Counted from the first letter of the stretch, positions 30,666 through 46,154 are shown. The stretch: 64,000 bases of DNA from Dehalococcoidales bacterium (GCA_041652735.1 JBAZGT010000003.1:49485-113484), one strand, 5' to 3'. Numbers and translations are program-made. Notes: generated from the sequence alone by a model not told the origin.

Positions 30666-30708
30666 GCCTGCCGACTCACCGCTATGCCCTCACCAGCCCT
30701 CGCTTATT

Positions 30709-31257
30709 CTATACAATAATAGCCCCGCCCGAACCGTCACTTACAGAAATCGGTTCTATAGGGAAGGCGTTTCCGGCATTTTTATTTATTTCCAGGGGTA
30801 AGCCATTCGCCTGCCAGAGTATATTGCCGCCGGCATCCAGCTTTTGCACGAAGATATCCATCATCTCTGCTTCCGGCGAGCCGCCTTAGATTTGCCCGCT
30901 GAAAATCTGCTGCCAAACAACGATAGCCCCTCCGGAACTATCGCTGATGATTTGCGGCGAATCCGGATAGGTATTTTCTGGGGTGGTATAGACAAGCACG
31001 CCGTCTCCCCATTCCAGTTCGCCTTCACTATTTATCTTCTGGGTAAAGATATGCCCGGTGGAGACGGCCTCGCCTGGCTTTGCCTCGGGCGGACGCTGTA
31101 CTTCCTCCCAGACAACCATCGCACCGCCGGTGCCATCGTCGGTTACCTTGAGTCCGTACAACGAATCTACATGTTGCGGGCATCCGGTCAGCAGCAGTAA
31201 AGACGAAACAATAAGGACAATGAATGTCACTATGCCCAATATTCTCTTTTTACTCAT
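30709..31257 (-). pseudogene. lipoprotein with D-x-x-GGA(I/M)(I/V)VW repeats, interrupted by an in-frame TAA at 30886-30888
   Basis: Signal peptide with LLTGC lipobox. The frame stays open for 58 more codons after the stop and encodes another ...DGSGGAIIV repeat unit. Confidence 0.6.
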
Positions 31258-31268
31258 GGTAGGTCACC

Positions 31269-31877
31269 TTATTCAATATTTTCGCTGGCGATTTTCTCCG
31301 TGATCATCGCAATAGTCCTGAGCCTCCCGTATATATCATCAAGCGGGGACGGCATATCCGGGTAGGTCTCGTCTTTGTCCGGGCTCAGGTAGCCGAAAGC
31401 CGTTACCTTCTTGTTTAGATTATCGCTATTAACGATAATAGTGAAACTCATATCGCTCGTTGTGAAGCTGCCATCTGGGCCGTTATCATTCGGTTTTCCC
31501 GGAAAACTATAGTATTCATCCAGCTTGCCCAGCCCGCTGTTCTCGAAGTAGGCCAAGAGGTTATTTACCTGTTCTACCGTAAAATTCCCTGTGCTCCAGG
31601 TCCGGGTAGCCGGGTGCTCCGGCGATGGAAACCGCAATCCTTTTTCCTCGATATAGAGAATGCTACCGTTGTCGTATATATAGAGTTCATAATTCTCTCC
31701 CCTCATGGTATAGAGGGACTGCTCGTAGATGACTGGATTGCCTTGAGGAATGTTTATGGTGACCGGATTCCCTTCAGGGTTGTCTCCGGTTGTGGAGTCA
31801 TACAACAACCAGTCCCCGCCTCCGATAATTACGATTCCCAAGGCCAGCAGAATATAAAGGATTACCTTCCTGCTCAT
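31269..31877 (-). CDS. hypothetical membrane-anchored/secreted protein
   Basis: ATG 31877 follows AAGGAGA. MSRKVILYILLALGIVIIGGG is an N-terminal anchor. No known motif. Confidence 0.5.
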   Translation of the reverse strand: MSRKVILYILLALGIVIIGGGDWLLYDSTTGDNPEGNPVTINIPQGNPVIYEQSLYTMRGENYELYIYDNGSILYIEEKGLRFPSPEHPATRTWSTGNFTVEQVNNLLAYFENSGLGKLDEYYSFPGKPNDNGPDGSFTTSDMSFTIIVNSDNLNKKVTAFGYLSPDKDETYPDMPSPLDDIYGRLRTIAMITEKIASENIE

Positions 31878-31897
31878 TTTAGTTCTCCTTTGAATGC

Positions 31898-32896
31898 TTA
31901 ATCGCTGATGCCTCTGATATCCATGAAAACTGTGGATTCCATAGCTAGAAATACCCATTCGTTGCCGGTTTGCAGTTCGTATTTACCGCGTTCGTTATAA
32001 GGATATGACTTGCTGTAAGTGAAATTGACCCATTGACTGCGGTCGGTGCGGTTTTCCAGTGAAAGCGTCACCTGCGCCGGGGTATCCGATATTACTTTTA
32101 CCGGCAAATTGAATCTCTCCACGATTATATCCTCGCTGCTCTTCACCGGTCCTCTCATATCCCGTGACGTGACAGTATTGAGTGCCTCGACGCCGGTTTT
32201 CGGCATAAGCTGTATCAGTTTATGAGGTGCGCCTTTCTCCCAGAAGATAATATTGGCTTCATATTTGGGCATAGGAACACCAGTTGCTTCGAGGTGAGGG
32301 ATCGTAAGCTTGAGCATCTGGCCGTATTCCGTGGTCACGATTTCCTGGGTAAAATCTTCAGTCAGATGGCCCGGCATGCTATATACCTGGCGGTAAAGCT
32401 CCTCGTATGGCTCGCCGGAGATAGTTCCGACCGGAAGGTATACCTCAATATTTTCGAGATTTTCCTGGGAGTGAATAACGACCTGATAATAATAGCCGTA
32501 GTGGGGCATGGCGGTATAACCGCACCAGCCAGTCATTGCTATCAGAATAACGAGCGTTGCGATTGAACTGAATCTTTTGACACCCTTTCTGACCAACGGA
32601 GCGAGAGCGCCGATCAACAAAATGCCGAAGCCCCCGGCGATGAACGCGCCGATATAGGGTGTGGGATAAAGGAGATTGGGGCTGCTAAAACCATACCAGA
32701 TTATCGATATGGCAAATGTATATCCGGCAAAAAGCAGGAAGCCGCAGAGAAGCCCCCAGCGCCATGATGAGAAATAGCCCAGGGCAAAGGCTAGGATAGG
32801 GAGAAGCACAAAAAAGAGGCTATGGATTCCCGCGGCTAAGAAAGCCAGTCCGAAGCCTACGATAAGAGCTATCAAGGGCAAAAATATTTTTTTCAA
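31898..32896 (-). CDS. hypothetical integral membrane protein with C-terminal extracytoplasmic domain
   Basis: 332 aa with about 5 N-terminal TM helices. Same strand, 20 nt upstream of the next gene. Confidence 0.55.
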   Translation of the reverse strand: MKKIFLPLIALIVGFGLAFLAAGIHSLFFVLLPILAFALGYFSSWRWGLLCGFLLFAGYTFAISIIWYGFSSPNLLYPTPYIGAFIAGGFGILLIGALAPLVRKGVKRFSSIATLVILIAMTGWCGYTAMPHYGYYYQVVIHSQENLENIEVYLPVGTISGEPYEELYRQVYSMPGHLTEDFTQEIVTTEYGQMLKLTIPHLEATGVPMPKYEANIIFWEKGAPHKLIQLMPKTGVEALNTVTSRDMRGPVKSSEDIIVERFNLPVKVISDTPAQVTLSLENRTDRSQWVNFTYSKSYPYNERGKYELQTGNEWVFLAMESTVFMDIRGISD

Positions 32897-33203
32897 GTGT
32901 CCCCCTCAAAACCTCATTTTAAAATTGTTAATAACTCCTCAACAGTATAACGCAGAAAGCCTACTCAAGTTGTATTACAAATTCCCATGGACCCTACCGG
33001 TCACCTATCCGGTTAATACGGAAAGTAGTTTCGGGAGCATTCTGTGGTATGAGGTCCAGGTCCCAAATTCACGCGGGTCTTTTGTCCCAGTATAGCTGAC
33101 GAGTAGCAGAGCCATTATACTGAGAGAAAATGGGTTTAAAATCCTTGAAATCGGCTTGGCTAAGATGTGTATATGCTTATTTACTTCCCCTTGCAGCATA
33201 AGT

Positions 33204-33335
33204 TTAATTAGTGTTTATTGGCAAATCCAGTGCCATTGCCCCACTGTCGGCAGTTTCCACATCAAATCCTGCTTCAACTCGGAACGTATCCTGCAGGACA
33301 CATCTGACGGCCTCAGTATCGTCCACTATCAGCAT
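33204..33335 (-). pseudogene. response-regulator receiver domain fragment (43 codons)
   Basis: MLIVDDTEAVRCVLQDTFRVEAGFDVETADSGAMALDL... then a stop. This is only the first beta-alpha units of a CheY-like domain. Confidence 0.4.
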
Positions 33336-33465
33336 TCTTTGACATTTACAGGATAACTTAACGGGCCATATCGTTTATGTAGTTCCGCTGCTTTCTCTAT
33401 CTCTGTCATTTTGTCACCTCTTTCTATATGGGAGTATATTTTGGACTGATTCCGATTCACTAAAA

Positions 33466-45471: not shown

Positions 45472-45506
45472 AAAGGCGAGTGAGTTTGACTCCCCGCCTT
45501 TTTTTT
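45472..45506 (+). terminator. hairpin + T8 (intrinsic terminator-like), 1 of 3
   Basis: ggcgagtgag...ctccccgcc stem followed by tttttttt, with an A-run upstream (possibly bidirectional). Confidence 0.45.
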
Positions 45507-45560
45507 ATTCCTTGAAATATTAACTAGGTGGCAAAGTATGTAAATAGAAACATTTAATTT

Positions 45561-45604
45561 AAAGGGGTATATTTGCGTGTATTCGCGGATTTACCCCTTT
45601 TTTT
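45561..45604 (+). terminator. hairpin + T7 (intrinsic terminator-like), 2 of 3
   Basis: aggggta...tacccct stem with an inner gcg/cgc extension, then ttttttt. Confidence 0.45.
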
Positions 45605-45618
45605 GTCTCCAAAATTCA

Positions 45619-45655
45619 GGGCAGTTTACGAACGAAATTCGGGGCTGCCCTTTTT
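45619..45655 (+). terminator. hairpin + T5 (intrinsic terminator-like), 3 of 3
   Basis: gggcag...ctgccc stem, then ttttt. Lies 30 nt before the RBS of 45685. Confidence 0.4.
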
Positions 45656-45684
45656 ATTTACCCGAACTGTTTAGGAGGTAAGAT

Positions 45685-46002
45685 ATGAAAAGAATTAGGA
45701 AACGAAAAGGGTTCTGTAATTTGACTTATTGTATTTTATTCTACATTTTGGTTAGTATCATCTTGTATATATTTGTGAAAGAGTGCGGCCTCTGGGCAGC
45801 TTTAGCTGTGACGGCAGTAAGCTACCCGACGATGGTCCTTATTATTGCCACAATTTTACGCATGCGCGGTGACATTACAGAAAGAAGTTTTATCATCTTG
45901 ATTTTTGAAGGGTTTAAAATTACACATCTGATACAAAATATACGGAATGATTCAGTAAACATCAAGTCTAACAACCCCCCTAGATCCAAGAAATCATCCT
46001 AA
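45685..46002 (+). CDS. hypothetical small membrane protein
   Basis: 105 aa with 2-3 TM segments, RBS taggaggtaaga. AT-rich codon usage. Confidence 0.4.
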   Translation: MKRIRKRKGFCNLTYCILFYILVSIILYIFVKECGLWAALAVTAVSYPTMVLIIATILRMRGDITERSFIILIFEGFKITHLIQNIRNDSVNIKSNNPPRSKKSS

Positions 46003-46010
46003 TAACACTC

Positions 46011-46154
46011 CTAATGTTCCCTCCTTGTTAGCTCCTTACTACTAATCACTTCATCAAACCCCTTCGCCGCAGCTTCCAGTAATCTAGGCGCCACGTGGCT
46101 ATAAGTATCCAGGGGTATTTGTATTCTGGAATGTACCAACCCGTGTGGATTATC
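46011..46154 (-). pseudogene. tyrosine integrase C-terminal remnant (47 codons)
   Basis: The reverse strand reads DNPHGLVHSRIQIPLDTYSHVAPRLLEAAAKGFDEVISSKELTRREH*. This is the conserved (G)HS.I..T.D.YSHV catalytic-Tyr end of phage integrases, preceded by a stop. Confidence 0.65.

Follow-up and report, generated by a model that had tools for sequence, protein, structure and literature searches.

The 64-kb stretch of a Dehalococcoidales bacterium analysed here (GCA_041652735.1, JBAZGT010000003.1:49485-113484; hereafter the window, with positions counted from its first nucleotide) contains, between 30.6 and 46.2 kb, a low-GC region that we interpret, with a probability of about 0.78, as the older part of a tandem insertion array at a tRNA-Met hotspot of a ~58% GC genome, its main block having come from a lower-GC relative. 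The locus combines a large shift in composition, three copies of an attachment (att) sequence formed by the 3' end of tRNA-Met, a set of pseudogenes, absence of the block from the same place in relatives and collinearity of its content with low-GC relatives. Read from the tRNA gene, the array consists of tRNA-Met, an integrated element (element 1), a second att copy (att2), a 13.9-kb block, a degenerate third att copy (att3), a 1.7-kb remnant with an integrase stub and a deletion junction, followed by a gene for a ClC chloride channel.

The window itself served as the host reference for composition. Its GC content is 0.578 at 1-21877, 0.584 in element 1 (21953-30584), 0.483 at 30700-44499, 0.405 at 44530-46210 and 0.581 at 46211-64000. 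Profiles computed in 1-kb steps give 0.39-0.53 across 31-46 kb against 0.55-0.63 on either side, and a 300-nt profile places the drop at ~30.7 kb and the recovery at ~46.2 kb. The mean GC content at third codon positions (GC3) is 0.52 for 19 block genes and 0.76 for 19 flank genes (Mann-Whitney p=6e-7), the tetranucleotide correlation to the flanks is 0.29-0.59 within the block as opposed to 0.88-0.96 elsewhere, and the dinucleotide distance delta* is 75-95 as opposed to 18-45. By GC, GC3 and tetranucleotide usage, the block thus departs from its host as genomic islands do. These values bear out an original prediction, made from the sequence of the window alone, of an AT-richer block at about 30.7-46.2 kb in which third codon positions switch to A/T; the GC contrast that it had estimated by eye, mid-40s against about 60%, is real and large but was slightly overstated, the actual values being 48% and 58%.

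The array is anchored at a tRNA-Met (CAU) gene on the plus strand (21878-21952; ARAGORN, and Rfam tRNA at 66 bits). Its 3' end (21916-21953, plus strand) forms att copy 1, supplied by element 1, and recurs as a 38-nt repeat with 2 mismatches at 30585-30622 on the same strand, just past the tyrosine integrase gene of element 1 (29511-30503, minus strand). This second copy is the displaced ancestral tRNA-Met 3' end, identical at 38/38 nt to the intact tRNA-Met of relatives. It is followed at about 30630-30668 (plus strand) by a hairpin and T-run terminator that, with att included, is 80-91% identical to the terminator after tRNA-Met in three close relatives (contigs L027, L029 and L030), where the homology covers window positions 30630-30692. 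The fall in GC then sets in at ~30.7 kb, as had been anticipated for a block starting right after a displaced tRNA end and its terminator.

The third copy, CCGGAATCCTTCCAACCCCGCTCTACCAAG (44500-44529, plus strand), differs by a 9-nt deletion plus 1 indel. It lies in tRNA orientation and, like att1 and att2, is followed by a terminator hairpin; the pattern derived from it had 0 chance matches in 100 shuffles, the pattern having been built post hoc. The hairpin and T-run lead into a 'TTGCCAACCATTTGCTAACC' arm (44539-44600, plus strand) homologous to the sequence after att_B in a Dehalococcoidaceae metagenome-assembled genome (MAG; contig L007). Direct repeats of the target tRNA 3' end, exact for att2 and degenerate for att3 and in the same orientation, therefore flank the block, which agrees with the earlier proposal of an island at the same tRNA hotspot. 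The far att copy had been expected near 46.15-46.21 kb, where none exists: a search at 46.0-46.3 kb gave no score above background. Its position at 44500-44529 divides the region into two units, a 13.9-kb block without an integrase and a 1.7-kb phage-like remnant, so that the single island ending in an integrase stub that had been envisaged is replaced by a tandem arrangement in which the stub belongs to the remnant at 44.53-46.2 kb.

The remnant begins with a gene for a 231-amino-acid helix-turn-helix protein resembling terminase small subunits (44653-45348, minus strand; PHROG 57, E=3.9e-6; Sigma70_r4, E=1.5e-4, below the Pfam cut-off), which points to a phage or satellite origin. There follow a small membrane-protein open reading frame (ORF) of 36% GC (45685-46002, plus strand), for which the family libraries hold no homologues, and the stub itself (46011-46154, minus strand; 47 codons and a stop, '...LDTYSHV...', translated as DNPHGLVHSRIQIPLDTYSHVAPRLLEAAAKGFDEVISSKELTRREH). 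Searches of the 47-residue stub against Pfam and PDB sequences returned no integrase match; annotated tyrosine integrase C-termini make up nearly all of its top tblastn matches from plasmids and phages, though at E-values of only 0.1-7. Its strand and its right-end position are those of the integrase in element 1, and it fits a predicted integrase whose N-terminal part was deleted together with the distal att site. L007 has an exact 38-nt att copy beside an integrase that shares 64% identity with its counterpart in element 1. After this att copy come a terminator, a 'TTGCTAACC...' arm with homology to 44539-44600, a short low-GC gene and an integrase stub 73% identical to the one in the window, beyond which lies native flank (CxxC, isochorismatase-like and speE genes) corresponding to window 57.6-62.6 kb. 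Such an arm and stub beside an exact att copy lend att3 independent support. The proposed 47-codon integrase remnant at the right end is consistent with its translation, with the weak matches to integrase C-termini and with its counterpart in L007. The same MAG also carries, at 4549-4710, a 54-codon C-terminal fragment of an integrase of the element 1 type just past the 3' end of the full-length integrase gene, apparently a second case of a C-terminal stub left behind by the decay of a tandem array.

The content of the block bears on its source. Its centre is an intact cluster conserved in Dehalococcoidales (33466-41821, minus strand; assigned with Pfam and NCBIfam and by synteny in L003, L005, L019, L031 and L033), in the order polyprenyl synthase, PlsC-like acyltransferase, YtxH-like protein, radical SAM/SPASM protein, PAP2-like protein, an 87-amino-acid protein, Get3/ArsA+HSP20 ATPase, TrmB-like helix-turn-helix protein, patatin, AF_1253 and three small proteins. 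Many Dehalococcoidales contigs, these five included, hold the same cluster in the same order at 53-90% amino acid identity; it adjoins a divergent DedA gene in L005, L031 and L033, with DnaJ beside it in L031 and L033. The contigs of these relatives are 48-52% GC throughout (49-52% for L003, L005, L031 and L033), and the cluster there has about the GC content of its own flanks. Collinearity reaches beyond the cluster in L019 (47.6% GC), which matches 30.9-37.8 kb at 77-87% nucleotide identity, including two unassigned genes and a lipoprotein gene. Such collinearity indicates that the cargo is a piece of ordinary chromosome of low-GC relatives, rather than typical island cargo.

Codon composition points the same way. 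The GC3 of the block genes (0.52) equals that of their orthologues in Dehalococcoidales of ~48-52% GC (0.40-0.61), with single genes in agreement (for example, polyprenyl synthase 0.44 against 0.40, ArsA 0.60 against 0.58, TrmB 0.55 against 0.54), which implies that the block has hardly been ameliorated. Flank genes, by contrast, have a GC3 of 0.74-0.85, some 0.1-0.2 above that of their orthologues in the closest relatives (for example, 0.75 against 0.60-0.63 for a pterin-binding methyltransferase and 0.84 against 0.63-0.73 for OYE). Together with the absence of the block from this place in relatives, this contrast sustains the claim of horizontal acquisition.

At the locus itself, the left flank of the window has collinear counterparts in L027, L029 and L030 (76-82% nucleotide identity) that extend as far as an intact tRNA-Met. 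Past that gene the three contigs carry other DNA: L027 and L029 have 6-7 kb of unrelated low-GC sequence and rejoin the window at 49805 (three small ORFs and OYE), with an att remnant of its own in L027, 4.6 kb from the tRNA-Met, and L030 passes from tRNA-Met through a 148-amino-acid ORF to the CxxC gene found at 57.6 kb of the window. On the other side, L025, with a ClC protein 89% identical in amino acid sequence, is collinear with 55759-46217, and homology breaks off at ~46217, with only the last few bases of the ClC gene remaining. The block, whose cluster is widespread elsewhere in related genomes, is therefore neither syntenic nor universal at this position, as expected of an acquired segment.

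The ClC gene (46211-47992, minus strand; GC3 0.81) is the first of host-like composition after the low-GC region. The variable zone reaches past the 46.2 kb at which the original prediction had ended the block. The segment encoding ClC, a glyoxalase and DUF389 (46211-49800; GC3 of the DUF389 gene 0.54) is also missing from L027 and L029, and in L007 a ClC gene (10001-11758) lies inside an att-bounded element, which together carry the accessory zone to 49.8 kb or beyond; L030 suggests that it may continue to ~57.5 kb. In GTDB species genomes, none of the ClC relatives at 71-77% identity has a neighbouring gene in common with the window.

The block has decayed at its edges. Its five pseudogenes and fragments, counting the integrase stub of the remnant, are those that had been listed in the original prediction, and they surround a cluster that is intact, with ratios of nonsynonymous to synonymous substitution (dN/dS) of 0.07-0.21 against orthologues, so that the earlier picture of an eroded insertion retaining one intact cluster stands. 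At the left end, a lipoprotein pseudogene (30709-31257, minus strand) has an in-frame stop after codon 123, terminating where the L019 homologue continues, and is probably also 3'-truncated at the left junction of the block, ~30.70-30.71 kb. Two intact genes to which no function was assigned (31269-31958 and 31898-32896, minus strand) are collinear with L019 and are followed by a 49-codon receiver-domain fragment (33207-33353, minus strand; Pfam Response_reg positions 2-37/111, E=3e-4). Right of the cluster, a DedA/VTT pseudogene (41959-42312, plus strand) with two in-frame stops is 67 residues shorter at its C terminus than the L005 orthologue, and occupies the position at which L005 and L031 hold an intact gene divergent from the cluster. 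The last gene is the C-terminal half of an MMPL transporter gene, truncated at its 5' end (42524-44173, minus strand; TIGR00833 positions 414-910/910, with a single Pfam MMPL domain).

Taken as an insertion at the tRNA hotspot, the block would have reached the tRNA att site earlier than element 1, since the inserts closest to the tRNA are the newer ones. Entry would have proceeded by site-specific recombination at that site, mediated either by an integrase since lost from the block or through a neighbouring element that carried the block in cis or trans, in the manner of cis-mobilizable accretion; the degenerate att3 would now hold the block in place, and a deletion would have taken the rest of the remnant's integrase along with the distal att site. 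The slight degree of amelioration suggests a block older than element 1 yet not ancient: the age that had been attributed to it holds only relative to element 1, and great age is made unlikely by the near absence of amelioration.

Several observations weigh against this scenario. Genes for an integrase, an excisionase or transfer are missing from the 13.9-kb block, which thus lacks the integrase of its own beside one att site that would be expected of an island; tblastn with four integrases and two stubs, as well as Pfam, detected no integrase-like sequence in 30623-44499. Its left junction lies ~90 nt past att2, after a native-like terminator, and apparently cuts the lipoprotein gene, which is unlike a clean site-specific junction and suggests either a later deletion or another route of entry. 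Att3 is short as well as degenerate, and the pattern by which it was tested was made after att3 had been seen. The cargo is chromosomal and housekeeping-like, atypical for an island, and the identity of the stub as an integrase relies on its weak E-values.

A serious rival therefore concerns the route of entry. Donor chromosomal DNA might have been brought in by transduction, by a tRNA-Met element excised aberrantly in the donor or by uptake, and fixed by homologous or illegitimate recombination beside tRNA-Met and its terminator, in which case att3 would belong to the remnant only. We regard this as possible but clearly the less probable course. It would accommodate a cargo collinear with ordinary chromosomal neighbourhoods (DnaJ-DedA-cluster), the want of mobility genes, the native-type terminator after att2 and the genes truncated at both ends (lipoprotein at ~30.71 kb, MMPL at 44.17 kb); the terminator and the cut lipoprotein gene would both be explained by entry through aberrant excision, transduction or recombination, but equally by a later deletion. 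A donor in which tRNA-Met stands beside the cluster was sought on the cluster-bearing contigs L003, L005, L016, L018 and L019, a scan that excluded L031 and L033, and none of the five has a tRNA gene, which leaves the required donor layout unsupported; a metagenome scan with the 332-amino-acid gene returned four short loci only, with no tRNA context. Furthermore, two att copies in direct orientation exactly bracket the block, the signature of site-specific accretion. A further proposal, that the block is a xenologous and perhaps the only copy of this class-wide conserved, membrane-related cluster, moved between Dehalococcoidales of differing GC through the tRNA-Met att system, seems doubtful; if correct, it would mean that the hotspot mediates the exchange or replacement of core-like clusters and not only of accessory genes.

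It is very improbable that the block is native, inherited vertically, with a low GC content imposed by gene-specific constraints and with relatives that lost or rearranged it. The cluster is indeed conserved across Dehalococcoidia, its radical-SAM protein having 3920 homologues at E<=1e-10, and amino acid identity to the best relatives (~89%) is similar in block and flank genes. Gene-specific constraint, however, is difficult to reconcile with relatives in which cluster and flanks have about the same GC content, whereas here the cluster lies 0.24 below the flanks in GC3, at the level of its low-GC orthologues, and with the upward shift of 0.1-0.2 in GC3 that affects the flank genes and not those of the block. 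The block is also bracketed by att copies and absent at this locus from L027, L029 and L030. Finally, the block has a lower synonymous divergence (dS) from L019 than flank genes have from any sampled relative: between polyprenyl synthase and the PAP2-like gene the values are 0.33-0.74, with 1.28 for the peripheral gene at 31898-32896, against 0.67-1.65 between flank genes and their nearest relatives at similar protein identity.

An assembly chimera of 48% and 58% GC Dehalococcoidales populations, joined at the conserved tRNA-Met 3' end, is hardly credible either. The left junction does lie at a sequence conserved between genomes, and an independent Logan contig ends at 30594, inside att2. That independent assembly (run SRR18595300), however, agrees with the window at every position from 30594 to 50465 (0 mismatches). 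It starts in att2, includes the host-lineage terminator and the whole block, and reaches 4.3 kb into high-GC DNA of the host lineage (ClC to 50465); both the terminator/block and the stub/ClC junctions lie within it. The right junction has no conserved repeat, att3 and the remnant resembling that of L007 are in keeping with a real array, and the junction between element 1 and att2 is of the same type as in L007. The reading in which the flanks are the foreign part was rejected on the same evidence as the native and chimeric ones. As for the contig end itself (SRR18595300_481064), it falls two bases past the first att mismatch (30592) and would fit a graph branch produced by coexisting occupied and empty tRNA-Met sites, with element 1 still excising or with a mixture of strains.

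Classical tRNA-linked islands adjoin a tRNA gene, carry direct repeats of its 3' end, deviate in GC and codon usage and contain integrase remnants and pseudogenes. The locus differs from them in two respects: its main block has no integrase of its own, and the orthologues of its cargo are core-like genes within the same order instead of genes for accessory functions. The closest parallel within the class Dehalococcoidia is provided by the tandem ssrA-linked genomic islands (ssrA-GIs) of Dehalococcoides, of which 15 have no integration module and were proposed to be cis-mobilizable or fixed (McMurdie et al. 2011; PMC3146451). In both cases several islands follow one another downstream of a single small-RNA gene, bounded by direct repeats of that gene's 3' end; some of them have no integration module, and local synteny is broken. 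The target here, however, is tRNA-Met, whereas ssrA-GIs use ssrA with a 20-bp ssrA direct repeat, and a tyrosine integrase lies at the tRNA-distal end in place of the DsiA/DsiB serine-recombinase module at the left edge of ssrA-GIs. Accordingly, the array cannot be assigned to the ssrA-GIs: its repeats derive from tRNA-Met, and the only recombinase domains found are of the Phage_integrase (tyrosine) type; no transfer-messenger RNA was found in the window by ARAGORN or Rfam. Further differences are the lack of rdhA genes, the uncultured host of ~58% GC and a conserved chromosomal cluster as cargo.

A second parallel is offered by cis-mobilizable elements (CIMEs) and accretion arrays of the ICESt1/ICESt3 type (Pavlovic et al. 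2004), as far as these are described in PMC3146451. On that description, the likeness lies in an att-flanked segment that is devoid of recombination and transfer genes, shares its site in tandem with an element that has an integrase, and is subject to decay by deletion; the 13.9-kb block is bounded by att copies and lacks both kinds of module, so that it would match a CIME by descriptive criteria. On the same description, the distal att copy departs from the type in being degenerate, with its 9-nt deletion, and element 1 in being phage- or satellite-like, with a capsid gene, rather than conjugative. The 9-nt deletion makes mobilization of the block by the integrase of element 1 doubtful, and the deletion and the indel together would argue against att3 being functional.

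In kind, the feature is an ordinary one, another instance in which islands accumulate in tandem at a small-RNA gene and decay there, and it leaves current concepts unchanged; only its cargo, a conserved and uncharacterized core-like cluster from a lower-GC relative, is unusual. The locus documents a tRNA-Met hotspot in uncultured Dehalococcoidales, with three att copies here and parallels in at least two other genomes (L007 and L027), and extends the tandem-island picture drawn from ssrA in Dehalococcoides to another target and another type of recombinase. For the curation of MAGs, it is an example of a 10-point drop in GC within a contig that reflects real biology and not mis-binning.

The Get3-like/radical-SAM/lipid cluster of Dehalococcoidia, conserved yet unstudied, may merit functional work. 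Its radical-SAM protein has no equivalog match in NCBIfam, and no role as tetraether or membrane-spanning lipid synthase was assigned to it, the only match to GDGT-MAS being weak and confined to the core domain (E=1.7e-5). The clusters of relatives often include an extra ketoacyl synthase gene, and in the low-GC relative L018 (1075-3014) two integrase genes lie directly upstream of the radical-SAM orthologue, in place of the ArsA/PAP2 part.

Element 1 (21954-30584) is an integrated element of 8.6 kb and 58% GC, delimited by its att pair and by its absence from L027, L029 and L030 and annotated with Pfam and PHROGs. It encodes a virion structural protein (23674-24318), a Mu gpT-like major head protein (24288-25211), a Ser/Thr kinase (27884-29362) and the intact tyrosine integrase described above, and looks like a capsid-encoding, satellite-like element; being tRNA-proximal, it would be the most recent insert. 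Its relative in L007, identified by the integrase 64% identical to its own, also has a conserved att-proximal arm. An exact-sequence look-up of the integrase returned no record, probably because of a different start codon call. Element 1 also contains, in a non-coding stretch (26161-26551), a set of three direct repeats (41-112 nt, at a spacing of 126-140 nt) that may form a regulatory or replication-origin-like array. Left of the tRNA gene, 10663-21739 holds seven tandem URO-D/MtaA-like methyltransferase paralogues followed by the pterin-binding methyltransferase, probably methyl-transfer (demethylase-type) genes, an arrangement kept in L027, L029 and L030.

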